Program-made: the position numbers and the translations under genes
Assembly: GCA_035516255.1 (NCBI GenBank)
Contig: DATJAL010000018.1
Location: forward strand, 22,992 to 86,991
Direction: 5' to 3'
Source of the DNA: Chitinivibrionales bacterium
GTDB taxonomy: Bacteria; Fibrobacterota; Chitinivibrionia; Chitinivibrionales; FEN-1185
DNA length: 64,000 nucleotides
The notes under the pieces: model-generated
Databases searched by the model: none
What the model saw: the letters and a program-made list of their open reading frames with translations, nothing else
Told to the model about the DNA's origin: nothing
Part shown: piece by piece, positions 4,812 to 57,476 of the stretch
Position numbering within the stretch: the stretch's first letter is position 1
How the letters are laid out: each line of letters begins with the position of its first letter

Positions 4812-4877
4812 TCACGCCTGGCAAACGGGTCTTATTTCCTCTTTTAAATCCGCGTACTTGGGAGCGGCGTAATCCTG

Positions 4878-16597: not shown

Positions 16598-16598
16598 C

Positions 16599-26419: not shown

Positions 26420-26451
26420 AAAAAAGGCCCTCTCTTCATAGAGAAGGCCTT
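26420..26451 (-). terminator. rho-independent-type terminator of the gene at 26478-28019
   Basis: Minus-strand RNA AAGGCCUUCUC-UAUGAA-GAGAGGGCCUU (11 bp, one G-U pair), followed by UUUUGUUU. Confidence 0.6.
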
Positions 26452-26477
26452 TACACGCATTTCAAGAAATCTTACTC

Positions 26478-28019
26478 CTACCTGCTGAGTACCAACTCTC
26501 CGGACGTCACGGTCTTCTGTCCCTTGATCCTCACAATGTAATTGCCAGCTTGAACAAGGCTTCCAGAATTGGTCCTGCCGTCCCAGACGATGTGGTTGCT
26601 ACCCGGATTGACGGCAAGCTTGCAGACACTTCTTCCCATAACGTTGAAGACCTCGGCATGCTGCACGGTTTCTCCTTCAGAAAGATTTATCGAAGTGGTG
26701 ATAGACCTGATTCCGCTGCCGGAAACAGAGACTTGAACTATGCCTTGGCGGGAAAGATGCGGATTCTCCCTGACTTCAGTCGAAATTGGCCAAGTAGAGG
26801 CGTCAACAAGCCCTTTTCCGGCGCCGGTTTGCGCGGTCATAAGCGTGGTTATGTCCGCCGCCGTGTAGCCGTAGATGGTTACGAACTTATCAACTATGGC
26901 CGTATTCCATGCGGGATACGCACTACCCGAATGATATTTTTGATCCCTGATCTTAATTGTTGCAGCATGATCAACGGCGCCCGCAAAGGTACCCATCACA
27001 ATGGAACGCTGGTCAGCGCCATCGCTGACACTGCCGCTCCACTGCCCCGGGTCGCCCGCCCACATACAGTCCACTATGCAGAGCTGTGCTTTTGCAGGAT
27101 AGGAAGTGGGAATATTTCCAACGACGTAGTCGCAGGAGTTGACGTACATGAGCGCCCAAATCCCGAGATCGGCGGCAGGACTATCAGAGTTACTGGGATC
27201 TCCACCTGTGTGCCCGAAGTCGATTGTCTGCTTGTTATTCTTCTGGCACATCGTAACGCCGCTGTACTCCCAATAGCGGTCATGGCCCTTGTTAACGGCG
27301 CAGTTCACTAAGATGTCGACTCCGTTGATGCTTGATGTTCCAGAGGCGTTATTCAGATTGCCCGTGAAATTAGGAAGACCGGCCGGAAACTGCACTGTCA
27401 CGCCGCCCGTACCTCCCCCGAAAACAACGCCTGTCGGGATGGGTTTGCCTGCGCCGACATAAGTCGACTTGTTGAAAGGACCGGCGTTACCACCGTCATA
27501 AATACAGATGTTTGCCGGCAGCATACCCTTGCCGATAAGCACGTTGCATACTTTTGCCACAACGGCAACAGACGGAAAAAGACCGGAAAAAGTATTCACC
27601 TTTATCGCAGCTTTTGCCGTTGCCCACGTTTTACTGGACGGAATCTTGAAAATTGTGTTCCATGCGGTAGTAATGTCATGCGTATTTGCAAGCGCGCATG
27701 CCAGCTTGTCCATGTCTGTTGCGACGACTGAGTAATTCACCACCGCATCAGTTGTATTTGCGGCTGGACTGGGATTATTGAATCCATCCCACTGCGGCCA
27801 ATGGTGGTTGGCATTCATCACGGCTTGGTCCGTTATCCACGCGACGCGAAGATTGTCGATATCCTGATTGATCGGCGTCGTGCTGAGGTTCACTAGGGTG
27901 GTGTTGATAGGTGCCGCAGCGGCCTTTTTCGCGCCAGGTCCAATCATGGCCAAGCCGACCGCACTGGCAGCCGATGCCTTCAAGAAGTTTCTCCTACTTT
28001 CCAAGGTTTTCTTGCTCAT
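26478..28019 (-). CDS. Tat-signal DUF362-like protein with T9SS-type CTD
   Basis: Near-perfect twin-arginine motif (ESRRNFLKASAASAVGLA). Core AAIKVNTFSG...ILVNCAVNKGHD aligns with the DUF362 blocks of 31671-32576 (VLKANMG...LINVPTAKSHD) and 33262-34752 (IGIKVNTLGG...LINVPVLKDHA). C-terminal CTD: VFNVMGRSV...VWDGRTNSG...GNYIVRIKG...LVLSR. Confidence 0.8.
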   Translation of the reverse strand: MSKKTLESRRNFLKASAASAVGLAMIGPGAKKAAAAPINTTLVNLSTTPINQDIDNLRVAWITDQAVMNANHHWPQWDGFNNPSPAANTTDAVVNYSVVATDMDKLACALANTHDITTAWNTIFKIPSSKTWATAKAAIKVNTFSGLFPSVAVVAKVCNVLIGKGMLPANICIYDGGNAGPFNKSTYVGAGKPIPTGVVFGGGTGGVTVQFPAGLPNFTGNLNNASGTSSINGVDILVNCAVNKGHDRYWEYSGVTMCQKNNKQTIDFGHTGGDPSNSDSPAADLGIWALMYVNSCDYVVGNIPTSYPAKAQLCIVDCMWAGDPGQWSGSVSDGADQRSIVMGTFAGAVDHAATIKIRDQKYHSGSAYPAWNTAIVDKFVTIYGYTAADITTLMTAQTGAGKGLVDASTWPISTEVRENPHLSRQGIVQVSVSGSGIRSITTSINLSEGETVQHAEVFNVMGRSVCKLAVNPGSNHIVWDGRTNSGSLVQAGNYIVRIKGQKTVTSGELVLSR

Positions 28020-28891: not shown

Positions 28892-29482
28892 TTATTGGAC
28901 AATTGCCTTGTATGTATCCAAAAACTTCAAGGCCTCTGGAACAGCAATGGTGGAAATTTGAGAAACCGTAAAACCCATGACATAAAATTCAAAATATAAT
29001 GCGCCGAATGTGGCGTATACATGGATGCCTCCGCCGACCACTGATGCCTGTGCTTCATTATCGGAATATTGGCCAAGGGTGACCTTAGTTGTAATATTTA
29101 CCGCGACTTGTGCGTCATACAAGGCCTTGGCTTTTGCCGTTGTGCCATAGTTATGGACATATCCGTTGAATGCATAATCACCATTGAGCGGTGAAGCAGT
29201 TGGCCCCCCATTCATTTTTTCATGGAACCATGAGACAAGACCAGAGTCTTTATACACCTGGGCCGGGCCATCGATGTAGTTAAAGAGGCTTTCGGGAGGA
29301 TATTGGACAAAATGGCTACTCGAATCCGGGACCCAGCCTGATATTTGTGAAGTAAAATAAAGGTCTTGCAGCTTGGTCTGCGGATTTGTTCCTTTATCGC
29401 CGCAATTCCATACCAGAGCAACGCAGACAATAATAAATATTGTAATTCCGCCCCAATACTGGATTTTTCGAGAATTATTCAT
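28892..29482 (-). CDS. small lipoprotein, paralog family member B (unknown function)
   Basis: Lipobox-like ALVWNCG. ISGWV...LFNYIDGPAQVY. Same length (196 aa) and same C-terminal ..IVQ as member A. Confidence 0.65.
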   Translation of the reverse strand: MNNSRKIQYWGGITIFIIVCVALVWNCGDKGTNPQTKLQDLYFTSQISGWVPDSSSHFVQYPPESLFNYIDGPAQVYKDSGLVSWFHEKMNGGPTASPLNGDYAFNGYVHNYGTTAKAKALYDAQVAVNITTKVTLGQYSDNEAQASVVGGGIHVYATFGALYFEFYVMGFTVSQISTIAVPEALKFLDTYKAIVQ

Positions 29483-29670: not shown

Positions 29671-31383
29671 CTATTCAGTAAATCCCTTTGGCAGCTCTTC
29701 CCCGGAAGAAGGAATGGCGTTCTGCGGTTTGGGCGTGGCCTGGTTTTCCGAGCCGCGGGATTTGACCGTGCCTCCTGCCTCGCCGCCCGATCCCATGGTC
29801 TCGGCGCTGATCTGGTTTTCGGCGGCAGATTCCTTGATCTCCCGGAGGACTTTCCTTTTCTCCGTGATGTAAGAACCGTTCTTTTTTCTGTCTTCACCGA
29901 TTGAATACACTTCGATCGCGGCCCGGCCGTACACCGGGCAAGCTTTTTCGCAATATCCGCAGCCGATGCACTTGTCGTCCATCACGAACGGTCGCTTGAA
30001 CGGCCCCTTGAAATTGTCCACCACCATGGAGTCGATCGCATGGATGGGGCAGATTTCGGCGCAGATGAGGCAGAGCTTTTCCTGCTCCCACGCTATGCAG
30101 CGGTGGCGGTCGATCACGGCGGTGCCGAGCTTGACAAACTGTTTTTCGGGAAGGGGCAGGGCGCGGATGGCCTGCGTGGGGCACACGTGACCGCACATGT
30201 TGCATTTGTCCTCGCACGGGCCCTTGCGCGGCACCAGGTGCGGCGTCCACAGGCCGTCGAACCCGCATTCGAGGTCGGCGGGCTGGAGGCCGTTGGTCTT
30301 GCAGGTCTTCATGCATTCGCCGCAGCGAATGCAGCGCGCAAGGAACTCGTGTTCGGGCAGGGAGCCGGGCGGCCGGATGAAACGGCCGTTGATGTTGCGC
30401 GGGGCGTTGAGGCCGGCTTTTGCCGTGGCGGCCAGCACAAGGCCGGCGAACGCGGACTGGATGAACCCGCGGCGCTCGATGCTGAGCGAGGCGTTCCCCG
30501 TTCCGGCGCCGAATGAGGCAAACCCAACGGTAATGGCGTTTTTCTTGCATCCGTCAATGCAGTCGCCGCACAGCACGCATTCGGACAGCACGGTGTGCCG
30601 CGGGTTGAGGTCAACGGCGCGCATGTCGCATTTCGCGGCGCAGACCTTGCAATCAATGCACCGCTCATCGTTCACCTTGCGTTTGATGATGCCGAAACGG
30701 GAGAACAGCGATAGGAACGCACCCGTGGGGCACACGTACCTGCACCAGAAGCGCTTGCGCCAGAAATTCGCCGCAATGATCGCGGCAAGGAACACAAATG
30801 AGGCCACGCCTGTTGAGAAAAAATACCGGTGGAAACTGAACTGGGTAAAGGAGTCGAACCCCATGGCAAGCAGCATGGGGCGGACAAGATCAATCGCGCC
30901 GTTGAAGAGCCATATCATGGGAGGATACAGTACCAAGGCAAAGGACCGCGGCGCAATGGACATGGGGCTCAAGAAAGCGAGGAGGTTCGCGCCCAGCAGG
31001 GAGCTGAACAGGACGCCGATGAGGACGTAATATTTTATCCTCCGGTTGGGCTTGGGTTCAACGGACTCCTTTTTGTGTTTTTTTCCGTGAATGAGAAAAT
31101 CCGAAACGTCAATGAGGGTGCCAAGCGGGCACACGTAGCCGCAGAAAAACCTGCCCAACACGATGGTGAGAACGAGCAGCACCCCGGCCCACAGCATGGT
31201 GGCGATCACTGCGCGCGAACCGATCATGGCAACGGTCGCCACGAGCGGATCGAGCCGCAAAAAGGCGTCCACCGGAAATTTCGCGGCATAGGGGTACATG
31301 GTGAAAATAAACAGCAGAATGAAAATGCCGAAGAAAACGGCTTGCGTGACGCGGCGGAAGGTCGAGAGTTTCATGGATTTCAA
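29671..31383 (-). CDS. membrane polyferredoxin, NapH-like N-terminal half fused to NapG/MauM-like tetra-cluster half
   Basis: Hydrophobic helices carry two CX3CP motifs (CGYVCP, CRYVCP). Ferredoxin motifs: CIDCKVCAAKC, CVLCGDCIDGC. Internal ERRGFIQSAFAGLVLAATA, then CIRCGECMKTC, CEDKCNMCGHVCP, CLICAEICP, CIGCGYCEKACP. Low-complexity C-terminal tail. Confidence 0.85.
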   Translation of the reverse strand: MKSMKLSTFRRVTQAVFFGIFILLFIFTMYPYAAKFPVDAFLRLDPLVATVAMIGSRAVIATMLWAGVLLVLTIVLGRFFCGYVCPLGTLIDVSDFLIHGKKHKKESVEPKPNRRIKYYVLIGVLFSSLLGANLLAFLSPMSIAPRSFALVLYPPMIWLFNGAIDLVRPMLLAMGFDSFTQFSFHRYFFSTGVASFVFLAAIIAANFWRKRFWCRYVCPTGAFLSLFSRFGIIKRKVNDERCIDCKVCAAKCDMRAVDLNPRHTVLSECVLCGDCIDGCKKNAITVGFASFGAGTGNASLSIERRGFIQSAFAGLVLAATAKAGLNAPRNINGRFIRPPGSLPEHEFLARCIRCGECMKTCKTNGLQPADLECGFDGLWTPHLVPRKGPCEDKCNMCGHVCPTQAIRALPLPEKQFVKLGTAVIDRHRCIAWEQEKLCLICAEICPIHAIDSMVVDNFKGPFKRPFVMDDKCIGCGYCEKACPVYGRAAIEVYSIGEDRKKNGSYITEKRKVLREIKESAAENQISAETMGSGGEAGGTVKSRGSENQATPKPQNAIPSSGEELPKGFTE

Positions 31384-31670: not shown

Positions 31671-32576
31671 TTATACTATCTTCACGTCCATTTTTTCCAC
31701 GTCGATTTCGCCGAGACCCATGGCGTAGGCGTTCTTAATGTGCTTGACCTGGTTGCCCTTGAATTCCTTGTTGTACCAGCGTGCAATGCCCACGGTGTAG
31801 GAATCCGCGGCAACCGGGTCTGCGCTTGCCACTACCGTATTGAGCTCGTCGGTTTTTCCCGGGCCGCTCGGACCGTTGGTGACCAGCGCGTATACGGCGT
31901 TGACAATAGTTAACGTCGGCTTGATAACGAGCAAAAGGTCGGCAATGGCCTGGTTGAGCTCCACCTGCTCGTGCATGAACTGGCGGTCCCACACCAATCC
32001 CATGAGGTTTTTGATGCCCAGGCTCACGCCGGTTGCGTCATGCGATTTTGCCGTGGGAACGTTGATGAGGCAGTTCGCGCGCAGCACCTCCTTGGCAATG
32101 GCCGTGGTCTTGAGCTGCTTGCCGTTCGGAATGGGGGTGTCCTGGTAGAACTTCTGGTCTTCGAGAAGCGCCACCACCACGCCTTTGAGGCTTTCAACCG
32201 CTGCTCCGATGCCGCTTTTTTCCTTGCAGACTTTCCCGTCGCGCAGGGGATGGTCGATCACGATCACGCGCTGCGCTCCCGCGTCGAGGCAGAGCTGGGC
32301 GGTTGCCTTGACGATTTCCGGGTGCGTGGTAGTACCCCATTCGGGCGGGTTGGGGAAGCCCATGTTGGCCTTGAGCACCACGCGGTCGCCCAGTTTCACG
32401 AATTTCTTCATTCCGCCGAGCGCATCGACCGCTTTCTTCACCAGCTCTTCGGGCTTGCCCTTTGCAACCGCGACAAGCGGCTTTTTATTGTCTTGGGCCA
32501 GCACGGGAACAGACGCCAATGCGGCGCCCGCGGCTGCCGCGCTTCCTGTTTTGAGAAAATCTCTGCGCGATATCAC
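31671..32576 (-). CDS. Tat-signal DUF362 domain protein
   Basis: MISRRDFLKTGSAAAAGAALA (twin-arginine). DRVVLKANMGFPNPPEWGTTTHPEIV...RVIVIDH...CLINVPTAKSHDATGVSLGIKNLMG...ADPVAADSY is the canonical DUF362 layout. Confidence 0.85.
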   Translation of the reverse strand: MISRRDFLKTGSAAAAGAALASVPVLAQDNKKPLVAVAKGKPEELVKKAVDALGGMKKFVKLGDRVVLKANMGFPNPPEWGTTTHPEIVKATAQLCLDAGAQRVIVIDHPLRDGKVCKEKSGIGAAVESLKGVVVALLEDQKFYQDTPIPNGKQLKTTAIAKEVLRANCLINVPTAKSHDATGVSLGIKNLMGLVWDRQFMHEQVELNQAIADLLLVIKPTLTIVNAVYALVTNGPSGPGKTDELNTVVASADPVAADSYTVGIARWYNKEFKGNQVKHIKNAYAMGLGEIDVEKMDVKIV

Positions 32577-32707: not shown

Positions 32708-33265
32708 TCATTCGACTCCGATTTTCTTGTCAATGTTCCAGTAAAACTGCTTTGCCATGTTGAGCGCGAAGTCGGATTTCTCGGTGGTGGATATCCTGAG
32801 GAATATGCTCTGTTTGGCGTACTGGATGGTGTACGAGGTTGCCTGGGAAAGGTCCACCACGACGATGGGGTTCTTCGTGCTTATCAGATCGGGCGAGGTG
32901 GGGTAGAAGAAGTTGAAAAGGTCAAGCGCGTTTTGCTCGGTGCCCTGATTGAAAATCGCCACGTTGATGTCGATGCTGCCGTTGCTGTACAGCTGCACCA
33001 CGCCCTCCTGGAACCCGTAGGTGATGTAAGTCTGCGCCGCGCCGTCGATGGCGGCATAAATCGACTGCTCGTCGGTCATGGTGGAGACGCTGCCTTTCTT
33101 GACAAATCCGCTTATGTCGTTGTCGATGGGCAGATAGTCGGCCGGGTCGGCCCCTGCGCCGGGATCCTTGCTGATGCGGCATTGGGAGAGAAATATCAGT
33201 GGAAGCGCAATTATTGCGATACGGTAAACGGGAGATCTGAAACTTGTAAAGCCAAACGCGTTCAT
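32708..33265 (-). CDS. small lipoprotein, paralog family member C (divergent)
   Basis: Lipobox-like LIFLSQC. ISGFV...IYAAIDGAAQTY matches the family motif. The start overlaps the upstream stop (ATGA at 33262-33265). Confidence 0.6.
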   Translation of the reverse strand: MNAFGFTSFRSPVYRIAIIALPLIFLSQCRISKDPGAGADPADYLPIDNDISGFVKKGSVSTMTDEQSIYAAIDGAAQTYITYGFQEGVVQLYSNGSIDINVAIFNQGTEQNALDLFNFFYPTSPDLISTKNPIVVVDLSQATSYTIQYAKQSIFLRISTTEKSDFALNMAKQFYWNIDKKIGVE

Positions 33266-34752
33266 ACGAGGGAAACCTTCCCCGAAACGAAATTGGTGGA
33301 TCCAAGATTGTATTGAATGGCGGCATCCAAGATGTGCCGCGCATCGGACTGATTCGGGTTAGTGCTTTGCGTCCAGGAGATTTCCGGAAGGGTGGGCGCG
33401 TATTTGGCCCGTAATGCATTAATTGTTTTCAAAGCCCATGTATCTATCGCCACCGGATCAGTGCCTACGACAATAGAATTTGGTTGGCATGTGGGCGGCC
33501 CGTCTGGCCCTCCCGAAAAGCATCCCTGGAGCGCGTCTCCGACAATGAGAGCAAGCTTGGATGCGCCGGTTCTTGCATTCGGTATTGCTCTAACGGCTTG
33601 ATACAGGGCAGGGATCGACGGACTGCACATCGTGTCATGGAGCGTCGCCGGGCCGTTCCAAATGTCGGTAATGCCGTAAAGGTTCTTCATCGAGAATGAT
33701 ATTCCGGACTGCGCATGATCCTTGAGCACCGGAACGTTGATCAGAAAGTCAACGGCTTCGAATATGGCGGTTAGCCTTTTGTCTGTGCCGGCGATGTTGA
33801 CGGTGGATCCCCACAAAGCGGAACCCGGCTCCTGCTGACTTACAGGAACACCATCATTGAGCGTGGTGTTGAAGCTGGCCGACGCGATCCGGCTGGTTCC
33901 TTTCACGTTTCGCAAGGGAAACCCGGCCGCCGCCATCTGAGAGCCCGGAGCCCTGTCGTCGAAAATAATGATTTGGTACGCCGGGAACGTTCCGCCAAGC
34001 ATTGCTGTCAAACTGCTTACGATGGCGGTTACAACCTCTGGCCTCGTACTCACATTTGACCCGCCGAGGGTGTTGACTTTGATTCCTATAAGCGAAGATG
34101 CAGTCAACCCCGGGAACAGCGATTCCCACGCGGCCGTTGCGACCGCCGGATCCTGGGTGCTTCCCGAGGGAATTGCGCCGTTGTCAATCTGCATCTGTGC
34201 GACCGCCGCGTCAATCATCGACTTCAACAGGGTCGCCTGAATATTCGGTTTTCCAATGGTGCCCGTGTTGACGGTGGCATTGGTGACAGGATACACATGC
34301 GACGGCTTCTGAATTGGAACAAGCAGACGATCGGACGGCGGGCTTTGGTTTCCCATCTGGCCATTTGGCCCGGTAACGGGACTGGAGTCGACTGCCCTCA
34401 CTGTGTAAGCGCAGGTACTGCCTACGGCAAACCCACTGGCATCCACGAAACCCGGATTGGTTACCTGTGCAAGCAGGGTGTCGTCGCGGTACACATCATA
34501 CGCACGGATTCCAGTCCACAACTTTGCTCCCGTAACATCGGTAAGGGGCCTGTCCCAGGTGATCATGACCGAATCGACGGCTCCGGAATCGCTTGTGGCC
34601 AAGTTGTAAGACAAACCTGTCGGCGCGGCCGGCAGCCGGATATCCGGCTCAACGACTGTTCGCTTATCGCAGCTTGCGAGAACGCCTATTCCTGCTGCTG
34701 CCTCAAGCGAATTGATCAGGAACTTCCTTCGGTTGATTTTCTTTGCATTCAT
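33262..34752 (-). CDS. Tat-signal lipoprotein with FN3-like module and DUF362-like domain
   Basis: INRRKFLINSLEAAAGIGVLASC (RR motif plus lipobox). The FN3-like stretch is PTGLSYNL...ITWDRP...YDVYRDD...YTVRAVDS. DUF362 blocks: IGIKVNTLGG, LINVPVLKDHAQSGISFSMKNLYG, TDPVAIDTW. Confidence 0.8.
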   Translation of the reverse strand: MNAKKINRRKFLINSLEAAAGIGVLASCDKRTVVEPDIRLPAAPTGLSYNLATSDSGAVDSVMITWDRPLTDVTGAKLWTGIRAYDVYRDDTLLAQVTNPGFVDASGFAVGSTCAYTVRAVDSSPVTGPNGQMGNQSPPSDRLLVPIQKPSHVYPVTNATVNTGTIGKPNIQATLLKSMIDAAVAQMQIDNGAIPSGSTQDPAVATAAWESLFPGLTASSLIGIKVNTLGGSNVSTRPEVVTAIVSSLTAMLGGTFPAYQIIIFDDRAPGSQMAAAGFPLRNVKGTSRIASASFNTTLNDGVPVSQQEPGSALWGSTVNIAGTDKRLTAIFEAVDFLINVPVLKDHAQSGISFSMKNLYGITDIWNGPATLHDTMCSPSIPALYQAVRAIPNARTGASKLALIVGDALQGCFSGGPDGPPTCQPNSIVVGTDPVAIDTWALKTINALRAKYAPTLPEISWTQSTNPNQSDARHILDAAIQYNLGSTNFVSGKVSLV

Positions 34753-34889: not shown

Positions 34890-37800
34890 TTAGAAGAGCG
34901 CCGTTGCCTTCAGCTCGGCCATGTTATAATTCAATACCTTCTGGTCGAACAAATAGTCCACTTCCAACAGCAAACGTAAGAAGAAATTAGCCCCTGCCTT
35001 CACCTGTATGTCGAGCTTGTTCTGCCATGCCTTGTCATAGCTCCTGAATGAATAATTCGCCCCGTTTGAAAGCATGGCTCCTATATAATATTGAGTTCGC
35101 CATTCCCTGATTACTTTTCCCTGAATGCGCCAGTCGAACAGGATCCCTGGTGTGATGGTGTTGAGATAGCCGGTCACGGTGTCCCTGGTGATATTGGTGC
35201 CAAGGTTGGTGAATGTGGAGTCCAGGTTCTGCCAGAGGATGTCCACCGTGGATTCAGTCCTAAGGTTCGGCACCCACCGTTCGGTCCACTTTATTCTGAA
35301 TTCATCCTGGTAGTTCTTGAGCGCAAACGTGTCGAGCTTTTGCGTGTAATCCGGCATATGTAAGTTGTCGAAAAACATGTTGAAATCGATGTCGAACCTG
35401 GTTTTCCTTTCTCTAAAGGCAAGACGCGCCTCGTTGTACCATTTGAGGCCGTCGTCGGTTGCGAGGGTGAAATTCGTTGAGTTCGTTTTCTCCAGCCTGC
35501 TGTCGAAATGAAGGTCTTGTGAAAAATCAAATATAGGCTTAATAGAGTAAGTTTGATTTAATGTATTCGTTCTTGTTTCGATTGTATCGGGTATTAACTC
35601 CAGGGAATCCCCGTTGGAAAATCCATATCCCAGGTTGAGCTGAAACGGGTTGAGAAACGTCAGGTAGACCCCGGGAACAAGAAGCAGGCTTCCATTTACC
35701 AGGTTCGCGGTTGTTGTTATCCGATCATCCGATGCAATGACGTTTTCCGAGGTTTGCAGCTGGTAATCGCCGTACAGGGTGATACCGGGGATCAGTTCCT
35801 GGGAAAAAAGTTTGAATTCGGGCCGCAATGTGTTCCCTCTATAGTCCATTGCCCCGTTAAGACTATCGCGGCCCTGAAAGATCCTGAAAACGCTCTTGGT
35901 TTCGAGCTGCAATTTTTTAAGGGGAGAAAACCTGATCCAGGCAAAAATATTATGGTCGAGCTTCTGATCGAACCGCGACTGCAGGTCGTAGGTGCCGGGT
36001 GCCGCGCCGGGGACAATGTTCGTGTCAACCGAATCGGTGAGGAGGTTGACGGAATACGAAGCGTCGAGCCATATCCTGTCGAGCACCTTGAAGGTGCGGC
36101 CCCATTCGGTCTCGATGATGCCGTTCCACCGGTCGGACCTCAGGGAATCGCGGTCGCCGCCGGGCAGGGAATCGCGCGTCAGGCGGGTGTAGTTTCTCAT
36201 GTCCTGATGCATGCCGAACAGCCTGAGCGACGGGATGTCCGGCGGCGAGATGAGATACTGCGCATACTCCCTTACCTCGCTGCCGCACGAGGCGTCGGTC
36301 ATATTCGCTCCCACCGTGATGGGCATGTACTGTTTCCAAACGTCCCAAACCAATTCGCCCTGCTCCTGGTGGTTGATCCTTCCGTACACCGAATTCTGGT
36401 CGGCGAGGGTGACGTAGTCGGGCGTCTCGTACATTCCCGAGGCCTTGAGCTTGAGGTTGTGGGCCACGGAGTACAGGTCGAGTTTCGCCGCGGTCCCCTG
36501 TTTTGTCACGAGAATGGAATCGTTGTAGCTCCCCGACACCTCGGGCACGGCCCTAAGATACAGTTTGCTGTCGGCGGATTTCATCTCTATCTTGCTGTTC
36601 ACGCTGCCGGCAAAGTCGCGGTTGTAAACGCTGTCGAGGCCGTTGCGGCTGGGCTCCTTGAACCCCCGGTACGCGCCGTTGACGCCCAGCGCGACCTTGT
36701 CGCTCAGCTCCACGACATTTTCGGCCGCGGCCATCTGGTTGGTGTATACCCCGATGGTGGGCTGGTACTGGCACGAGACCTCGATGCGGGAGTCGGGGTT
36801 GGCCAGCCCCTCGTTCTTGAACGTGAGCAGGCCCATGGTCCGCTCGATGCTGTAGTCGCTCGGGTCGACGAGCTGTCCGTCAACCAGGATCTGCACGCTC
36901 TCGGTGACGATGTTCTCCACGCCGAGCTCGTAGAAGTTGTCTTCACGGAAGGGAATGAGCTTCCTGAAATACTCGGCCTTGCCGAAGCCCGCCCACAGGC
37001 CGGTGTTGACGCGGCGCAGCTTCTTGTCGCCCACGCGGTCGCCGAACTCCGCGCGGACGCCCGCGCCCTCGAGGTAGGTGGGGTTAATGAGCGAGCTGTA
37101 GAAATAGTCGGTCTTCTGGTCGGTGCGCCAGCCGATCCTGCGCAGGTTGTCGTCGCCGAACCCGCGGTATTCGGCGCCGTAACGCAGGTCGCCGAGCGGG
37201 TCGGTGTTGTCGTAGGTGGCGCGCAGCGTGCGGCCGTTGTTCAGGTCGGCGTTGAGGTTGAGGTTGGCCTTTGCCCATCCGTACAAAAAGTCCTTGTAGG
37301 TCGCCACGGTGTCGACGGGCGCGCGCGTGATGGCGCCGCCCGCGGCCGTGTCGTAGGCGTACACGACGGAGTCGAGGTTCTTGTTTGTCAAATAGTTGCC
37401 GATGCTCGTGGCGAGCGGCGCGGGAAACTCGGCCTTGTTTTCGACCTTGTATTCGGCGGTGCCGCGGAGGTTCAGGCTCTGGCCGCCCGGCGCCTCAACG
37501 CCGAGCCCGGTCTCGTCCATGTGCCCCTTCCACTTGGGCTTCTGCCCGCCGCCGGCCACCTTGATCTGGGTGGCGTACCAGAGGTCCTGGTCGGTTTTCA
37601 AATAGGAGAACGTGGTGCCCTTTCTGCACAGCGTGGTCTGGCCCGAGGTGTACACCTCGTCCTGTACGTCGTCGCTGAGGCCGTCCACCGACGTGTAGGT
37701 TTTCCAGAGCCGCTTGTCCTCGTCGAACGAATACACGCCGTCGGACGTGGCAAACCATTCGGTGGTCCCGGAGGTGGAGAGCGAATACACCGTTTTCTTC

Positions 37801-38609
37801 TCGATGGGCATGTTGCGCGAGAAGTTTTCCCAGGTCTGGTTCTTGCCGTTGAACCGCGCCACGCCCTCGGGCGACATCACCCAGATGTACGACGCGTCGA
37901 CGAGCATGTAGTTGACCGCCGAACCCACGATGCCGTTGTTGAGCGGGTAGGAGTTCCATGCCTTCATGGCGATGGAGTAGCGCGAGAAGCCCTTGTCGGT
38001 CTCGGCCCAGATGTAGTCGCTGAAGCTGAAAAGCCTGAACACCGTGTTCGAGATGAGCCCGGTGCCCGCGGTGTAGCTTTCCCATTTCTCGAATTTCTTG
38101 TCAAAGTAGAATACGCCCTGGTCGGTGGCCACCCACAACTGGGCCTGGTTGGAGTATAGGTCGTAGATGCGCTTGCCCGCAAAATCCCCCATGGGCTCCC
38201 ACTGCATCACCAGCTTGTTGAACCGAGCCAGGCCGTGCGGGCCCGCCGCGTACACGTAGTCGAGGTCGGCCACGAGCCTTACCACGGTGTCGGACGGCAT
38301 GCCCTGCTTTGCCGAATAGGGTTTCCAATCGAGGTACCGCATGTCGGCGTAGAGCGCGCCGCGGTTGGTGCCCACCCACAGTTCCTTGTCGTCAAGGCAC
38401 AGGTCGTTCACGGCCTCGGGCCTGATGTTGCCCCATGCCTCGTTTTCGGTCTGGAACCGTTGCAGGCCGAAGTCGGTGCCCCACCATACCGAGTTATCAT
38501 ACTGGAAAAACAGTTGGCGCGGCGGGGGAGTGGCGGCGAAGAGGCCGCACAACATGCCCGCACCCGTGATCAAAAGGATTTTTTTTATGACCGCTGATGA
38601 ATAAGACAT
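34890..38609 (-). CDS. very large envelope protein: N-terminal propeller repeats + long probable outer-membrane beta-barrel
   Basis: ATG 38609 gives the signal-like MSYSSAVIKKILLITGAGMLCGLFAA; the track start is 38693. There are five blades of the type LWVGTNRGALYAD / LWVATDQGVFYFD / IWAETDKGFSRYS / IWVMSPEGVARFN / EWFATSDGVYSFD. About 850 aa of Y/G/N/D/T-rich alternating sequence then end in ...ELKATALF (C-terminal Phe, as in OM barrels). Confidence 0.7.
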   Translation of the reverse strand: MSYSSAVIKKILLITGAGMLCGLFAATPPPRQLFFQYDNSVWWGTDFGLQRFQTENEAWGNIRPEAVNDLCLDDKELWVGTNRGALYADMRYLDWKPYSAKQGMPSDTVVRLVADLDYVYAAGPHGLARFNKLVMQWEPMGDFAGKRIYDLYSNQAQLWVATDQGVFYFDKKFEKWESYTAGTGLISNTVFRLFSFSDYIWAETDKGFSRYSIAMKAWNSYPLNNGIVGSAVNYMLVDASYIWVMSPEGVARFNGKNQTWENFSRNMPIEKKTVYSLSTSGTTEWFATSDGVYSFDEDKRLWKTYTSVDGLSDDVQDEVYTSGQTTLCRKGTTFSYLKTDQDLWYATQIKVAGGGQKPKWKGHMDETGLGVEAPGGQSLNLRGTAEYKVENKAEFPAPLATSIGNYLTNKNLDSVVYAYDTAAGGAITRAPVDTVATYKDFLYGWAKANLNLNADLNNGRTLRATYDNTDPLGDLRYGAEYRGFGDDNLRRIGWRTDQKTDYFYSSLINPTYLEGAGVRAEFGDRVGDKKLRRVNTGLWAGFGKAEYFRKLIPFREDNFYELGVENIVTESVQILVDGQLVDPSDYSIERTMGLLTFKNEGLANPDSRIEVSCQYQPTIGVYTNQMAAAENVVELSDKVALGVNGAYRGFKEPSRNGLDSVYNRDFAGSVNSKIEMKSADSKLYLRAVPEVSGSYNDSILVTKQGTAAKLDLYSVAHNLKLKASGMYETPDYVTLADQNSVYGRINHQEQGELVWDVWKQYMPITVGANMTDASCGSEVREYAQYLISPPDIPSLRLFGMHQDMRNYTRLTRDSLPGGDRDSLRSDRWNGIIETEWGRTFKVLDRIWLDASYSVNLLTDSVDTNIVPGAAPGTYDLQSRFDQKLDHNIFAWIRFSPLKKLQLETKSVFRIFQGRDSLNGAMDYRGNTLRPEFKLFSQELIPGITLYGDYQLQTSENVIASDDRITTTANLVNGSLLLVPGVYLTFLNPFQLNLGYGFSNGDSLELIPDTIETRTNTLNQTYSIKPIFDFSQDLHFDSRLEKTNSTNFTLATDDGLKWYNEARLAFRERKTRFDIDFNMFFDNLHMPDYTQKLDTFALKNYQDEFRIKWTERWVPNLRTESTVDILWQNLDSTFTNLGTNITRDTVTGYLNTITPGILFDWRIQGKVIREWRTQYYIGAMLSNGANYSFRSYDKAWQNKLDIQVKAGANFFLRLLLEVDYLFDQKVLNYNMAELKATALF

Positions 38610-38802
38610 GGATTTCCGGACTGACAAAGATGGTTTAACCGGCGAACGTAAAAACAAAAATGAGCCAAAACCGGTTAAATGGGATCTTTTCACTGCGCGC
38701 GTTCAACAAACTCAGTTCGGTGTACGGGGGGCATAACCGGAACCATCAAACGGCAAATAAAATATATGAAAATACGGGGGGGTTCAATATAGTTGTCTAA
38801 AA

Positions 38803-39420
38803 TTATTTCCACGATTTCACGATTTTCACCGCGTCCCGCATCTTGTAATGGTTTTTGATGCCGGGCTTGATCTCCACGCCGCTGTTAAATTCCACAGCAT
38901 AGGGCGAGACGTTTTCAAGCGCCTCGCGAATGTTGGACGGATTAAGCCCGCCCGACAGGATGATGTTAGGGTATTTCTGCGCGGCCTTTTTCGCGATCGA
39001 CCAGTCAAACGTTTTGCCGCTGCCGCCGCGGCCCTCGCTCCAGGTGTCGAGCAGATAGCCGCTCACCTTGTAACGGCCGAGCGAATCGAGCGAGAAATCA
39101 GGGCCGACGCCGAATGCCTTGATCACGCCGCAGGAAAACCCCGCGGCAAGCTCGGGGGTTTCATCGCCGTGGAGCTGTACGGTATCGATGCCGGTCTGCT
39201 GATAAATTGACATTATGGTATCTGCAGTGTCGTTAACAAACACGCCGACCTTTGACACGAACGGCGGCAGCCTGTTAATGATGTCTTTTGCCGCGAACGG
39301 ATGGATGTAGCGCGGGCTCTGGGGGTAAAAAATGAACCCGAGCGCGTCAACGCCGAGGCCCACCGCGGTCTTGGCGTCTTCATACTGCGTGATGCCGCAG
39401 ATTTTTATTCGGATGGGCAT
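38803..39420 (-). CDS. trpF: phosphoribosylanthranilate isomerase
   Basis: MPIRIKICGITQYEDA...GVDALGFIFYPQSPRYI...VQLHGDE...ILSGGLNPSN. Confidence 0.9.
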   Translation of the reverse strand: MPIRIKICGITQYEDAKTAVGLGVDALGFIFYPQSPRYIHPFAAKDIINRLPPFVSKVGVFVNDTADTIMSIYQQTGIDTVQLHGDETPELAAGFSCGVIKAFGVGPDFSLDSLGRYKVSGYLLDTWSEGRGGSGKTFDWSIAKKAAQKYPNIILSGGLNPSNIREALENVSPYAVEFNSGVEIKPGIKNHYKMRDAVKIVKSWK

Positions 39421-39700
39421 AGGTAGAGTTTAAAATAAATCGGGGCGTTCCCCCTTGTTGAGGCGCGTTTTATCGCGCCTCAACAAGGGGTCGGTTCTCC
39501 CTCCGGGCTCGGCCTTGTTGCCGGACCGCCCGATGCCGCTTGCGCGGCAGGGTCGACCGGCATGAGGCAAATGATACAATAAAAAGCGCGAAGCGCAACT
39601 ACCTTACCTCAGGGAACGAAGTGACAATGCGCTCCGGCGCACCACTCCGGTCGCCCCTAACGCGGCGGCGGAGTTCTGTTGCGTAAAGAAGGTACAGTTG
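39421..39700 (-). promoter_or_regulatory. structured leader-like region upstream of trpF, related to the trpE leader
   Basis: Blocks 39630-39676 and 39442-39510 align with 44641-44685 and 44483-44524 respectively. Contains a 16-bp hairpin (39453-39490) followed on the RNA by GGGGGAACGCCCCGAUUUAUUUU. Confidence 0.35.
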
Positions 39701-39801
39701 CGCCGAGCGGAGGGTTAAATGAATAACAGAAGAATTATTCCGAAATAAATGCGGTCGGGAGTTTTAAGATGATTATCGAGGATCGATTCAACCCTTATTG
39801 T

Positions 39802-40032
39802 TTATTTTTCTTTTTCCGTTAATTTCTTCGCGGCTTTTGTCGGAAACAATTTCGCGTAAATGTCTTGTTGCCACTTGACAATTTTTTGAACGCACTCGGT
39901 GCAAATGTCCGCGGAACGGGTATCGTTAATAGGTATGTGATTAAAAACGGGATTATAATTTTTGATTTGGCTGCCGCATAAGGTGCAGTTCATGTTGTTT
40001 ACTTCTGCGGACGCTGCCGATTTGTTATTCAT
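39802..40032 (-). CDS. small zinc-ribbon-like protein
   Basis: ATG 40032 overlaps the upstream stop (ATGA). Two CxxC pairs (CTLCG ... CTECV). 76 aa, basic C-terminus. Confidence 0.5.
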   Translation of the reverse strand: MNNKSAASAEVNNMNCTLCGSQIKNYNPVFNHIPINDTRSADICTECVQKIVKWQQDIYAKLFPTKAAKKLTEKEK

Positions 40033-40799
40033 TTCAGAACCCCTTCCCTCAGCAACCTCATCAACCCCTCCTTCCACACCGGCCAGTCATGACCGCCCTC
40101 CAATTCGACCACATGTCCTTTTGGCAGCGCCTGCTCGAGAATGCGGATCCCTGGCGCAAGCTTGTCTTTAACGCCGTATGCGACATAAATCCGCGGACAT
40201 CCTGGACCGCCGCCTGCGCACCCTTTGAGCCATTGCCACAGGGGCCGTTCCCAATCCTTTTCGTCCACCTTGGCGGGCATTGACCACGCGCTGAGACCGC
40301 CTGCCTTCGTGATCTCCTGTATCGGCCCTTTCGATGTGGTATAAGGCCCCATTAAAATTATGCCTTCGATCACGCCCGGATGTTTCCATGCGTAAAGCTG
40401 CGAGCCCAGCCCGCCCATCGAATTTCCCAGAAACCAGATGCGGCGGTAGCCCTTGGCATTCGCGGGATCGATGATGTCTTTGGTGACACGCTCGTGGAGC
40501 GTGCGGTCGGCATAATAACCATAATGCACGTCGGCGGAGACAACGTCAAATGACGGCGCATAGGCCTTTATCGAATCGATAATGCCGTTGCCCTGCAGCA
40601 CCGTGATCGAGTCGCCGAAACCGGGAAGATAGACCAGGAGGCCGTCCTTGTGGGGTGCCCGTTCGTAGGTGATGGTGCGCAAGGGGATGACGGTGCGGGG
40701 GAGGCACAATAAAAATAAAGGTACGCAGAGAAAGGCAACAATCGGATGGATTAATGTGCTTGTTTTGATTGACATACGGCATTTGCCTTTTGTTTGCAT
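40029..40799 (-). CDS. alpha/beta-hydrolase (esterase/lipase-like), probably exported or membrane-anchored
   Basis: N-terminal hydrophobic segment. LVYLPGFGDS, nucleophile elbow GNSMGG, C-terminal GGHDW. Confidence 0.8.
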   Translation of the reverse strand: MQTKGKCRMSIKTSTLIHPIVAFLCVPLFLLCLPRTVIPLRTITYERAPHKDGLLVYLPGFGDSITVLQGNGIIDSIKAYAPSFDVVSADVHYGYYADRTLHERVTKDIIDPANAKGYRRIWFLGNSMGGLGSQLYAWKHPGVIEGIILMGPYTTSKGPIQEITKAGGLSAWSMPAKVDEKDWERPLWQWLKGCAGGGPGCPRIYVAYGVKDKLAPGIRILEQALPKGHVVELEGGHDWPVWKEGLMRLLREGVLK

Positions 40800-41259
40800 T
40801 TTGACAAATGTTATGGCGTTATGAGTTGTGCTAATTACTTTTCGCCGGGTTCTATAATGTCATGAAAAAATATAAATCTCCTACCTGACAATTCCAACTC
40901 CACACATGCCATTATATTCGTTCACATTTTCCGAGTTGCTTATAAGAATATATCGCTGCGAAGCGGCATACCACTGAGGATGCGTTACGAAGGGGCGACG
41001 CCTCGCGAGCTTTAATGCGAGCGAACTGGCGCGCCCCTTTGCAGGAAAGGGTGTGCTCCCGGATCATCCCGCGCCGGGCTATGCAACGTATTGATTGACT
41101 CTGCAGGCGCATGCGGCGCGGGCCAGGGGTAACCGCGAAGTGGTGTCCACGCCAGATACGAGCCCAATTGTTTTTTGGGGAGGCACGGTGCCGTGACCGG
41201 TAGGCGCCATGATTATTTAGCCAGTTATGAGACAGGCTGAACTTCTCCCCCGACTATTT

Positions 41260-42039
41260 TTATTCTTTCATTTCAGATAGTTCTTTTATCAACTTCCCGG
41301 GCTCATCCAACCTCATCAGGCTTTCTCCGACTAATAATGCCGAAACTCCCGTTTTGTAAAGCTGCTTCGCCTGTTCTCCGGTTTCAATTCCGCTTTCAGA
41401 AACAAGAACAATTTCTTTCGGCACATGCGGCGCGATAAAAAGCGTGGTGTTGCTGTCGGTCTTGAACGTGGCCAGGTCGCGGTTGTTAACGCCGACGCAA
41501 GCGGGGAGCGGCGACAGCTTGAACACTTTGTCAAGTTCCTTTGTCGAATGTATTTCGATGAGAATGTCGAGTGTTCTTTCCAGGCCCGCGTGGTACAATT
41601 CGTCCATCTGGCCGTTGGAGAGGCATGCGGCGATAAGCAGCATCGCGTCGGCGTTCATCGAAGCGGTCTGTTCAACCTGGACCGGATCAATGATGAAATC
41701 CTTTCTGAGCACGGGCAGCGGCACGGCGTTGCGGGCGGCTTCGAGATACGCCGTCGCGCCCATGAAGAATTTTTCATCAGTAAGGACTGAAAGGGCCGCC
41801 GCGCCGCCCGCGGCATACTTTTCCGCAATGGTCTTCGGATTGAAATCTTTCGCGATTACGCCCCTGCTCGGCGACGCCTTCTTGATTTCAGCGATTATGG
41901 CAAGGCCGTCTTGCTTTCGCAATGATTTTACGAACGGCCGAAGGTCCGAGGATCGTCCCGCAAAACGCCCGCGTTCTTTACGAAGGCGTTTGACCTCTTC
42001 TTTCTTTTCGGCAATGATGGTGTCGAGGATGGTAGCCAT
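41260..42039 (-). CDS. trpC: indole-3-glycerol-phosphate synthase
   Basis: ILDTIIAEKKEEV...IIAEIKKASPSRG...ALSVLTDEKFF...LRKDFIID...VGVNNRDL...VSESGI. Confidence 0.9.
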   Translation of the reverse strand: MATILDTIIAEKKEEVKRLRKERGRFAGRSSDLRPFVKSLRKQDGLAIIAEIKKASPSRGVIAKDFNPKTIAEKYAAGGAAALSVLTDEKFFMGATAYLEAARNAVPLPVLRKDFIIDPVQVEQTASMNADAMLLIAACLSNGQMDELYHAGLERTLDILIEIHSTKELDKVFKLSPLPACVGVNNRDLATFKTDSNTTLFIAPHVPKEIVLVSESGIETGEQAKQLYKTGVSALLVGESLMRLDEPGKLIKELSEMKE

Positions 42040-42060
42040 TTTATCTTGGTTGATTTAAAA

Positions 42061-42171
42061 AACATTCACCGCAAAGGCGCAAGGAGCGCAAGGATGAATA
42101 TTGTTTCCGAAGGGTGCCTCATTATAGTCTATGATTTACTTTGCGTCCTTTGCGCCTTTGCGGTGAATGTT
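42061..42171. repeat. long inverted repeat filling the trpG-trpC spacer
   Basis: aacattcaccgcaaaggcgcaa (42061-42082) is the perfect reverse complement of 42150-42171. The arms extend imperfectly for ~10 more nt, and the loop is ~45 nt. Confidence 0.8.
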
Positions 42172-42183
42172 TTGTGAGACAGA

Positions 42184-42756
<573 letters not shown>

Positions 42757-42810
42757 GGATGTTTATTCTCTCGTTTTTTTTTCATGACTTTAAAGATGAC
42801 CTATAAACAT

Positions 42811-42888
42811 TGTCATTCCCGCGGAAGCGGGAATCCATGGATGGTAATTTATTGGAGAAGAAGGACTCCCGCTTTCGCGGGAGTGACA
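42811..42888. mobile_element. MITE-like element, ~78 bp, with 26-nt hairpin-forming terminal inverted repeats
   Basis: tgtcattcccgcggaagcgggaatcc (42811-42836) and ggactcccgctttcgcgggagtgaca (42863-42888) are inverted copies. A related pair occurs at 61933-62065. Confidence 0.5.
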
Positions 42889-42988
42889 ATATCCCGTTTC
42901 CTGATTTTTTTAGAGTATCCATGAAATTGAATAAAATCTTTTTTCATAGTTAAATCAGCGTCATCATTGTAATCAGCGAAATCAGGGG

Positions 42989-44464
<1,476 letters not shown>

Positions 44465-53446: not shown

Positions 53447-54946
53447 TCACCGGCACACGGCAATTTTTGCCTTGACCGCCTGTCCCCTTGACGTGACGGT
53501 AATCAAATATATTCCGTTTGTCACCCTGCAGCCGTTTTGTCCGGAATAGTCCCATACAAATGTTTTTGATGACCCGGCAAAGGTGCGGACCAGCTGTCCC
53601 TCCAGGGAAAAAACCGATGCCGAATATTCCGCGGGAGCGGAGCGTTTTGTTGCAATGACGCAAAAGTTCCTGCCCGGCAATACGCTTATAAATGATTGAT
53701 CGTGCACCATGCCGGTTTTTGGAGCCGGCAGCGCCGCTGTTGACGAAGGCCCGTACACCTCGAATTCGAACATCGAATAGCCGAATCCCGAGAGGCGCTG
53801 GAGGCACCGTACGCGCACGAATCGGGCCTGTGTCTGAGCTATTTTGATGGGCCGCTTTTCCCAACCCTTACCGTCGGTGATGTGGCTGACGGTCGTCCAT
53901 CCCTGGTCGTTGTCCGAGGCGGCGTTGGCGACCTGAAGCAGATACTCCTTTGCGCCGGAGTCTTCCCAATTGAGAAAAACCGAGTCTATGAAGCAAACGC
54001 TCCCCAGGTCCACGTACACCCAGGCCGAATCCTTGTTCGGATCGTTTTTGTAATCCGTGCCCCACCTGGTTGATGAATCGTCGTCCACAACATTCGAGGC
54101 GACGAGATCGCCGCCTTCCGCGCTCGTGCATTTCGCGAATTTCTTGCAGGCGAGGTTGATCCTGGCCTTTTGGGACCACGAAAGCGACGCCGCGTTCGAG
54201 GTGTCGCCGCCGCAGGGGGAGGAGACGACGCACCGGAACAGGGCGCCGCTGTCCGCCGCAACGGGCTTGAACGCGTAGTACGCGCTTGTCGCATTTGTAA
54301 TGTCCGCCCATGCAAGGCCGGACGGCGAACTTCTCTGCCATTGGAACAGCATGTCGGTGCCGTTTGCATAGACGTTGAAGGAAGTGTTGAGCCCGGCATT
54401 GAACGTCCGGTCGGCGGGATCGGCGGCCACGACCGGCGGCACGCATCCGCTGTAGTTCCCGTACACTTCAAACTCCCATATCGAATACCCGAAAATGGAC
54501 GCGCGCTTGTACCCGCTGAGCCGCACGAAGCGCGCCTGAACGGGCGCGAAGGTGATGGAGCGTTTCTCACCCTGCGTGCCGTCGGTGATGTGCGCGGCCG
54601 TGGTCCACCCCGCGTCCGAGGTCGGCAGGGTGGTCGCGGTCTGGATCGCGTAGTCCTGGCCCGCGGCGGTCTCCCAGTTGACAAAAACGGAATCAACGGC
54701 GTAGGGAACGCCGAGGTCGACCATGATCCACTCTGAGTCCGTCGTGTTGCTTTCCCAGCGGTCGCTCGTCACGCCGTTCACGGCCTTTCCCGGCGGATTG
54801 TCCTCGCCCACGCTCGAGGCCCACACGGGCCGGTACAGGGCGAGGTTGGGACGGGCGAACACATCCGCGGAGCTTGAAATCAGCAGGGCAATGAAAATGA
54901 TGGCCGCGGAATGATGGACATAATGCGGAGTTTTGATTGCTTTCAT
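53447..54946 (-). CDS. T9SS cargo: discoidin(F5/8-C)-Ig-discoidin-CTD protein
   Basis: Two copies of NLAL...ASS...AVNG/VDD..S.RW.....W..VDLG...IDSVF.NWE...A.EY..Q, separated by an Ig-like module (FQWQRS...ADSGALFRCVVSS). The CTD ends KAKIAVCR. Confidence 0.8.
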   Translation of the reverse strand: MKAIKTPHYVHHSAAIIFIALLISSSADVFARPNLALYRPVWASSVGEDNPPGKAVNGVTSDRWESNTTDSEWIMVDLGVPYAVDSVFVNWETAAGQDYAIQTATTLPTSDAGWTTAAHITDGTQGEKRSITFAPVQARFVRLSGYKRASIFGYSIWEFEVYGNYSGCVPPVVAADPADRTFNAGLNTSFNVYANGTDMLFQWQRSSPSGLAWADITNATSAYYAFKPVAADSGALFRCVVSSPCGGDTSNAASLSWSQKARINLACKKFAKCTSAEGGDLVASNVVDDDSSTRWGTDYKNDPNKDSAWVYVDLGSVCFIDSVFLNWEDSGAKEYLLQVANAASDNDQGWTTVSHITDGKGWEKRPIKIAQTQARFVRVRCLQRLSGFGYSMFEFEVYGPSSTAALPAPKTGMVHDQSFISVLPGRNFCVIATKRSAPAEYSASVFSLEGQLVRTFAGSSKTFVWDYSGQNGCRVTNGIYLITVTSRGQAVKAKIAVCR

Positions 54947-54974
54947 GGCTTCTCCCCCGAAAGGCGTGAAATTC

Positions 54975-56504: not shown

Positions 56505-56519
56505 TGTTGAGCTCCCCTA

Positions 56520-57356: not shown

Positions 57357-57476
57357 GTTCCCCCTCTTCCTAAAAACATGAAAATGGTTTTAAAATTGTG
57401 TCACCGAATTGACGGTTTGGAAAAAAAGAGGGCCCTGCTTGGCCCCCTTTTCTTTCCATTTTAATAATGCTCCCGC

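Follow-up and report, generated by a model that had tools for sequence, protein, structure and literature searches.

A β-propeller fused to a predicted giant outer-membrane barrel related to SprA is encoded beside NapGH and Tat-exported DUF362 proteins in Fibrobacterota

The propeller-barrel gene and its product

We analysed a stretch of 64,000 nucleotides (the window) from a Chitinivibrionales bacterium of the phylum Fibrobacterota (assembly GCA_035516255.1, contig DATJAL010000018.1, positions 22,992 to 86,991 of the forward strand). Its minus strand encodes a protein of 1239 amino acids (aa) in which a seven-bladed β-propeller is followed by a predicted giant outer-membrane (OM) β-barrel. 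The gene belongs to a conserved cluster that also encodes a NapH-NapG fusion, DUF362 proteins exported by the twin-arginine translocation (Tat) pathway and small lipoproteins. By sequence and fold, the closest known relative of the barrel is SprA, the T9SS (type IX secretion system) translocon, the relation being one of module and fold. The features of the gene, all on the minus strand, are as follows.

34890..38609: coding sequence of the propeller-barrel protein, 1239 aa, stop included (open reading frame, match to a protein of a metagenome-assembled genome, orthologue alignment)
38535..38609: putative signal peptide of the general secretory (Sec) type, about aa 1-25 (read from the sequence)
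37590..38522: seven-bladed Reg_prop-type β-propeller, about aa 30-340 (seven motifs at aa 41-284, homology, conservation in distant members)
36975..37577: aa 345-545, a linker together with the most conserved motifs of the family (GRxxxGxYDNTD, YGxEYRG, RR..N.G) and the earliest of the predicted long strands (superfamily consensus; model confidence 50-87)
36483..36971: SprA-homologous module, aa 547-709, a β-sandwich (NIxxESVxIxVDGxxxDPxDYSIERTxGLLTFKNEG..PDSRIEIS.QYQP) and then about five barrel strands (hhalign, library matches)
34893..36482: the predicted barrel from aa 710 to the C-terminus (aa 1239), with about 24 long hairpin-linked strands and the C-terminal β-signal ...AELKATALF (model confidence 80-94)

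From 34890 to 38693 the minus strand is one unbroken open reading frame (ORF), with 1267 codons if counted from a GTG. The true start is probably the ATG at 38609 and not the GTG at 38693 chosen by the ORF finder, because the 1239-aa product is identical to VLX68_06330, a protein in NCBI from a Chitinivibrionales metagenome-assembled genome (MAG), and the N-termini of the orthologues agree with it. We found about 33 full-length orthologues (42-86% identity) in MAGs of Fibrobacterota/Chitinivibrionales and Raymondbacteria. The N-terminus reads, by eye, as a putative Sec signal peptide (MSYSSAVIKKILLITGAGMLCGLFA/A), with a KK pair, a 15-residue hydrophobic core and LFA/A, and no conserved lipobox cysteine was seen in the orthologue alignment. 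The protein ends in ...YNMAELKATALF (...AELKATALF), where T1236 and F1239 are invariant among 29 orthologues. In the C-terminal 869 aa, L, D, T, G and N are abundant and Y makes up 5.4%. An 801-aa ORF on the opposite strand (35754-38159, plus strand), which lies within the barrel gene in a region of 62% GC, is best taken as the shadow ORF of a gene rich in GC. The barrel or NapGH gene is frame-split in some MAG contigs (L015 10001-13707, L008 17729-19371, L015 17685-19384, L020 10001-13502); these cases are likely indel or assembly errors, or else pseudogenes.

There are seven copies of the blade motif, W-x-x-T/G-x-x-G-hydrophobic-x-x-aromatic; they start at residues 41, 77, 119, 158, 200, 242 and 284 and have a spacing of 36-42 aa. 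The propeller is therefore seven-bladed, and the five blades counted in a first-pass annotation made from the sequence alone have to be revised upwards. The Pfam Reg_prop score (16.7 bits) falls under the model's own cut-off of 20.4; matches of the propeller to proteins annotated with Reg_prop or PorZ_N reach E-values down to 4e-78, far beyond chance. The closest comparisons are thus the Reg_prop hybrid two-component sensors and PorZ (PF07494, PF21544), which share the repeat motif, the seven-blade periodicity and strong profile matches. Unlike these proteins, the protein described here has one propeller rather than two, and this is fused to an OM barrel. In contrast to the sensors it has no transmembrane helix or kinase, it does not reach the Pfam threshold, and a Pfam scan found neither a Y_Y_Y domain (PF07495) nor any sensor output domain. 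Ten proteins of 1400-1570 aa (P0034-P0043) were considered as larger relatives and rejected, since their match is confined to the propeller. The propeller presumably faces the periplasm.

A predicted outer-membrane barrel of about 35 strands

We built an AlphaFold2 model of residues 345-1239 on 30 aligned sequences. The mean predicted local distance difference test (pLDDT) is 76.7, with most of the last ~550 residues at 80-94, and the predicted template-modelling score (pTM) is 0.52. The model is purely β. Merging leaves 46 strands, of which 36 reach 9 aa or more, about 35 of these lying outside a small β-sandwich. About six long strands precede the sandwich, which is followed by 29 consecutive long strands with a mean length of 16 aa. 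In the predicted secondary structure, short turns, many with just two residues, connect the strands, and the longest loop is 18 aa. A signal peptide, an all-β meander in the model and a C-terminal β-signal ending in an aromatic residue together make up the profile of an OM barrel inserted by the β-barrel assembly machinery (BAM). The model thus predicts that the C-terminal region is a giant OM β-barrel of roughly 35 strands. The first-pass annotation had proposed a propeller fused to a very large OM barrel with 30 or more strands, and both parts are borne out by the roughly 35 long strands of the all-β model, the signal-like N-terminus and the invariant C-terminal phenylalanine.

A Foldseek search of the PDB listed 98 matches at E ≤1e-3, all of them OM barrels except apoB. 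The best were the SprA chains 8gl6_A (E 3.9e-9), 8gl8_A and 6h3i_A (TMq 0.38), followed by Deinococcus SlpA, MtrB, LptD and TonB-dependent transporters. SlpA (PDB 8AE1, 7ZGX), next best after the top SprA chains, is likewise a very large OM barrel (30 strands) with an N-terminal periplasmic domain; the protein described here differs from it in having no SLH domain, no coiled coil, no sequence similarity to it and no evidence of trimerisation. Matches of the LptD and TonB type are low (TMq about 0.2), and Pfam and NCBIfam models for TonB-dependent receptors (Plug/TonB_dep_Rec), LptD and Omp85/POTRA gave no match. The Pfam and NCBIfam scans of the whole protein returned just the sub-threshold Reg_prop match and a spurious CyaY. 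Searching PDB sequences with the protein alone found nothing, nor did the C-terminal profile at E-values up to 10.

Relationship to SprA

We searched 1.84 billion representative proteins with a HMMER profile of the C-terminal region (A2). Among the 128 proteins obtained, the orthologues form one group; a second comprises about 70 proteins of 1100-1440 aa and a third about 15 of 1850-2260 aa. In a local hmmsearch, the ~70 proteins of intermediate length retain the N-terminal propeller, whereas the ~15 long ones are without it. The distant relatives came from this exhaustive search; a word-indexed homologue search with the C-terminal profile gave the orthologues alone. Four of the long matches were compared with the SprA/Sov model TIGR04189 (cut-off 200 bits). 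P0119, P0160 and P0176 score above the cut-off and P0153 below it (142.5 bits), with E-values over the four of 8.9e-42 to 8.5e-170. P0119 is found by the C-terminal profile at E 1.8e-12 (library hmmsearch).

Alignment of the A2 profile with a SprA alignment by hhalign gave a probability of 98.8% (E 1.4e-16) over 161 columns, corresponding to residues 547-709 of the protein; against a single SprA sequence the probability was 95.9%. Members of the intermediate, TA06-like subfamily match TIGR04189 directly, with E-values of 5.5e-11 and 1.4e-9 (36-40 bits over ~70 aa). As far as these sequence comparisons go, SprA appears to be the sole characterised family with significant similarity to the barrel. 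The claim that the protein fits no standard class, SprA included, therefore has to be divided: the protein lies outside the curated SprA family, whose models it fails, but the SprA chains at the top of the Foldseek matches and the hhalign result contradict the exclusion of SprA as a relative.

SprA has 36 strands, a lumen of ~7 nm, a cap, a lateral opening and the partners PorV and Plug (PMC7463736, PMC10994853), and its ~7-nm lumen lets folded cargo through (PMC7463736). SprA/Sov (TIGR04189, PF14349; PDB 6H3I, 6H3J, 8GL6, 8GL8) and the protein described here have in common a giant single-chain OM barrel (36 strands in SprA; predicted here, with about 35 long strands in our model), a C-terminal aromatic residue and an occurrence in lineages of the Fibrobacteres-Chlorobi-Bacteroidetes (FCB) group with T9SS-type cargo; such cargo bears a C-terminal domain (CTD), and CTD-like tails are found on proteins co-encoded here. 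The differences are considerable. The barrel region is about 860 aa long, while SprA proteins have ~1850-2400 aa, and the seven-bladed propeller stands where SprA has an extended N-terminus that binds SkpA and SprE. The SprA-type cap is missing from the model: with a longest inter-strand loop of 18 aa in the predicted secondary structure, and a region of ~860 aa where SprA has 1850 aa or more, the short loops would leave no room for SprA's extracellular cap. The SprA gene stands alone, whereas the gene described here is tied to a NapGH/Tat/DUF362 module. Genes for PorV, Plug, SprE and GldKLMN were found neither in the cluster nor in the related loci examined. We found no literature on 'SprA-like' proteins.

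The gene cluster and the conservation of its linkage

Seven genes on the same strand lie downstream of the barrel gene and form with it an eight-gene cluster, all on the minus strand.

33262..34752: DUF362 protein (DUF362L), 496 aa, with an RRKFL Tat-like motif and the lipobox LASC; the invariant downstream neighbour of the barrel gene
32708..33265: DUF6599-like lipoprotein, 185 aa, its start overlapping the upstream stop by 4 bp
31671..32576: Tat-exported DUF362 protein, 301 aa, presumed periplasmic (TAT_signal score above cut-off)
29671..31383: NapH-NapG fusion, 570 aa, a membrane quinol-dehydrogenase-type polyferredoxin with 29 cysteines (NapH and NapG models, E ~1e-30)
28892..29482: paralogous DUF6599-like lipoprotein, 196 aa
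28066..28656: paralogous DUF6599-like lipoprotein, 196 aa
26478..28019: Tat-signal protein, 513 aa, related to DUF362 but divergent; its T9SS type-A-CTD-like/FlgD_ig tail is below cut-off
26423..26452: strong intrinsic-terminator-like hairpin, a 13-bp stem and then a T-run, which closes the cluster

The Tat signals of both the 301-aa and the 513-aa proteins exceed their cut-offs, and homologues of the 513-aa protein in loci L003, L006 and L037 combine DUF362 with FlgD_ig. The NapH-NapG fusion consists of a NapH-like membrane domain with two CxxxCP-type motifs (cytoplasmic Fe-S clusters), an internal RRGF-plus-hydrophobic segment and a NapG-like polyferredoxin. A CxxCH haem motif is absent from all eight cluster proteins, among which NapGH alone has Fe-S motifs. 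DUF362 belongs to the same Pfam clan as the N-terminal domain of LarA (PMC11770544). A model of the DUF6599 lipoprotein (pLDDT 86, pTM 0.82) resembles the extracellular sensor domain of PknH (TMq 0.62), TiME and RseB, which are small ligand-binding α/β folds, and no T9SS component is among the matches listed. The modelled fold suggests that these lipoproteins may bind a small ligand or a glycolipid. A role as an LptE-like or T9SS-Plug-like stopper was considered and is unsupported, as the model resembles the PknH sensor, TiME and RseB instead. A literature search on DUF6599 returned nothing.

Fifteen ortholog-group loci have readable sequence downstream, and all of them keep the order barrel, DUF362L, DUF6599-like lipoprotein, interrupted by one extra gene in a single locus (Raymondbacteria). 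In these loci, from Fibrobacterota, Chitinivibrionales and Raymondbacteria, the barrel is 39-78% identical to that of the window, and the closer relatives retain all eight genes. The first DUF6599-like lipoprotein (32708-33265) is better conserved in distant orthologues (55-82% identity) than the barrel itself. A TA06 locus (L006) with a barrel homologue of 23% identity has genes for DUF362-FlgD_ig, DUF6599, Tat-DUF362, NapGH and the barrel next to each other in a changed order. A separate subfamily (21 representatives) shares ~20% identity with the window protein, and one or more of the partner genes are present in 18 of the 23 metagenome loci fetched for it. These are NapGH and/or Tat-DUF362 upstream of the barrel or, downstream, a lipoprotein and at least one Tat-DUF362-FlgD_ig/CTD protein; the gene order of the subfamily is NapGH, Tat-DUF362, barrel, lipoprotein, Tat-DUF362-FlgD_ig/CTD. 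The 301-aa Tat-DUF362 protein is 46-51% identical in these loci and 50% identical in TA06; the NapH-NapG fusion is kept at 38-41% identity in most of the distant loci that carry NapGH. That the linkage has survived such divergence and rearrangement is strong evidence of a functional unit. The first-pass annotation had suspected that the barrel is the OM component of the adjacent DUF362 system and had asked for the adjacency to be checked; the synteny in 15 of 15 loci, together with the NapGH/Tat-DUF362 link in TA06 and in the ~20%-identity subfamily, gives this strong support. The family is broad in uncultivated FCB-group bacteria, and all genome-level matches come from MAGs.

In locus L037, which belongs to the ~20%-identity subfamily, the NapGH-DUF362-barrel cluster has directly upstream of it tatC and a TatA-like segment (4811-6390, minus strand), the latter as a fusion with an ORF resembling 5-formyltetrahydrofolate cyclo-ligase. 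Near the barrel gene in L003 (17271-18539, minus strand) and L031 (14091-20601) there are additional DUF362 paralogues whose tails are of the CHU_C (type-B CTD-like) or FlgD_ig kind, which indicates an expansion of surface-targeted DUF362 proteins. Upstream of the barrel gene in the window are trp genes and valS. Of these, trpE, a trpG-like gene, trpC and trpF (38803-44464, minus strand) are directly upstream, with an α/β-hydrolase ORF (40029-40799) between trpC and trpF. The adjacency to trpF is kept just in close relatives (76-80% identity) and is therefore probably incidental.

T9SS-type proteins in the window

Elsewhere in the window, a 764-aa PorZ-like protein (4878-7172, minus strand) matches NF052228 at E 1e-25, below the cut-off, and its T9SS type-A sorting domain passes (27.4 against 23 bits); its presence indicates that parts of the T9SS attachment complex exist in the organism. 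Four tandem paralogous secreted proteins (53447-58340, minus strand) have N-terminal '...ARPNLAL..T' motifs and CTD-like tails, and a 940-aa protein near them (48818-51640, minus strand) likewise has a CTD-like tail. Where these tails match TIGR04183, they score 17-21 bits, below the cut-off. The four paralogues and the 940-aa protein look like a local expansion of T9SS-type cargo. As the window holds both a PorZ-like protein and CTD cargo, the organism has T9SS-type sorting.

A Tat signal and a T9SS type-A-CTD-like/FlgD_ig tail occur together in the 513-aa cluster protein (26478-28019, minus strand) and in two proteins of L037 (14367-15794, minus strand; 16242-17648, plus strand), both of which also contain a DUF362 domain. 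Cargo of the T9SS is as a rule described as depending on Sec, and the combination of Tat with a CTD is unusual. Our literature search for a link between Tat and the T9SS found nothing.

Proposed function and alternative explanations

The barrel gene is linked to genes for exported proteins of redox type, so its product is probably their OM gateway. More specifically, we propose that the barrel protein, a compact and distant SprA relative, is the OM component of a conserved envelope module and provides DUF362 proteins, folded and exported by Tat, with a wide pore or a dock, a reading that we would as readily back as doubt. The protein would reach the OM as a BAM-type protein, with its Sec signal peptide followed by a presumably periplasmic propeller and then a giant, cap-less barrel of roughly 35 strands. 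Its partners would be the NapH-NapG-type polyferredoxin of the inner membrane, the Tat-exported periplasmic DUF362 protein, the small PknH-like lipoproteins and the Tat-exported DUF362 paralogues with a lipobox or a T9SS-like C-terminal tail as surface anchor. NapGH would tie the system to the quinone pool. Folded DUF362 proteins exported by Tat might cross the OM, or dock in it, through the wide barrel, and the propeller and/or the small lipoproteins may gate or occupy the cap-less pore. A redox enzyme fed, as we infer, by NapGH would then end at the cell surface, where the anchored DUF362 paralogues would be located.

A bolder version of this proposal is tentative, and we consider it less probable. 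The barrel might be a second, compact and cap-less SprA-type translocon dedicated to folded, cofactor-bearing DUF362 enzymes exported by Tat. It would then represent an unrecognised Tat-to-OM route of secretion or display, which builds a cytochrome-free extracellular redox module on the quinone pool via NapGH in FCB bacteria (Fibrobacterota, Raymondbacteria, TA06 and relatives).

Several observations weigh against a SprA-like gateway. Significant similarity to SprA is confined to ~160 aa, ~18% of the C-terminal region, so two barrels that are unrelated could merely have this one domain in common. Beyond it, the barrel is weakly similar though collinear (hhalign E 0.05-0.14). TIGR04189 and SprA_N give no match to the window protein at E ≤1, and PDB sequences give none even to a profile. 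In Foldseek the SprA chains reach low TM-scores of 0.33-0.38, and other giant barrels come close to them. The energising components GldKLMN, SprE and PorV are absent from the cluster. The T9SS-like tails are mostly under the curated cut-off (20.9 against 23 bits), and the invariant neighbour DUF362L is without such a tail. Fe-S and haem motifs are lacking in the DUF362 proteins, an uncharacterised family, and in the barrel. Lastly, the T9SS-type components of the window imply that the organism probably has a canonical T9SS able to export tailed proteins.

Alternatively, the barrel might act as a sheath, permanently enclosing the periplasmic Tat-DUF362 protein and itself touching a redox protein at the surface, as MtrB or DmsF would, so that NapGH feeds a cytochrome-free conduit across the OM and nothing is translocated. 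The MtrB/DmsF porins (PDB 6R2Q) are also OM barrels co-encoded with an inner-membrane quinol dehydrogenase and with periplasmic and surface-anchored redox proteins, and in the Shewanella Dms system Tat substrates likewise reach the cell surface. Such an arrangement accords with the conserved linkage to NapGH and to two classes of DUF362 protein, periplasmic and anchored, with the presence of MtrB among the Foldseek matches (6r2q_B, E 4e-6) and with a pore of short loops and no cap, which needs an occupant. However, no electron wire is evident in DUF362 proteins and a barrel without CxxCH or Fe-S motifs, the single significant sequence relative is SprA, a protein translocon, and about 35 strands would make a pore much wider than that of MtrB. 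MtrB, with its 26 strands and multihaem partner, also lacks a propeller and shows just a weak fold match (TMq 0.25) and no sequence similarity. We therefore regard the sheath as unlikely; its haem-based variant, a conduit of the Mtr kind, was rejected, as the eight cluster proteins contain no CxxCH.

Import or export of large substrates for periplasmic NapGH/DUF362 enzymes, with the propeller binding a substrate such as an oligosaccharide as in hybrid two-component sensors, seems to us more doubtful still. The Reg_prop type of the propeller fits this idea, as do the polysaccharide-degrading habit of the host lineages, the ligand-binding-type fold of the small lipoproteins and the fusions of DUF362 to CBM9 and dockerin seen in lignocellulose-degrading consortia (PMC5742341). 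But a pore of ~35 strands far exceeds known nutrient channels, Pfam and NCBIfam scans found no TonB box or plug domain, and the anchored, Tat-exported DUF362 paralogues are unaccounted for.

It is quite improbable that the barrel is a reduced form of SprA/Sov acting as the general T9SS translocon of the lineage. The resemblance to SprA, the many CTD-bearing proteins and the PorZ-like gene in the window would agree with such a role, but TIGR04189 and SprA_N failed, separate full-size SprA proteins (1850-2260 aa) are present in the library, and strict co-location with one cargo-type module over very deep divergence is unlike a housekeeping translocon. Least of all do we expect the C-terminal region to be a soluble or surface β-rich repeat protein with a misleading model, which the pTM of only 0.52 and a pLDDT of 40-75 at residues 345-660 might allow, in view of the Foldseek matches (OM barrels but for apoB), the long up-down hairpin meander with two-residue turns, the signal peptide and the invariant aromatic residue of the terminal β-signal.

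Implications

In the protein described here, a SprA-like barrel is found in a novel architecture and in a system context that is likewise new. To our knowledge, SprA/Sov is the largest known single-chain OM barrel and is so far known just as the T9SS translocon. A widespread, half-sized and cap-less SprA relative fused to a propeller would show the minimal build and the gating of such pores, and it would suggest that the SprA fold has been recruited into a second envelope system. The linkage to Tat and NapGH gives the uncharacterised DUF362 family a testable context, that of a quinone-linked redox enzyme in the periplasm or at the surface. It also raises a broader question, itself testable, of how FCB bacteria bring folded Tat substrates to the surface of the cell.

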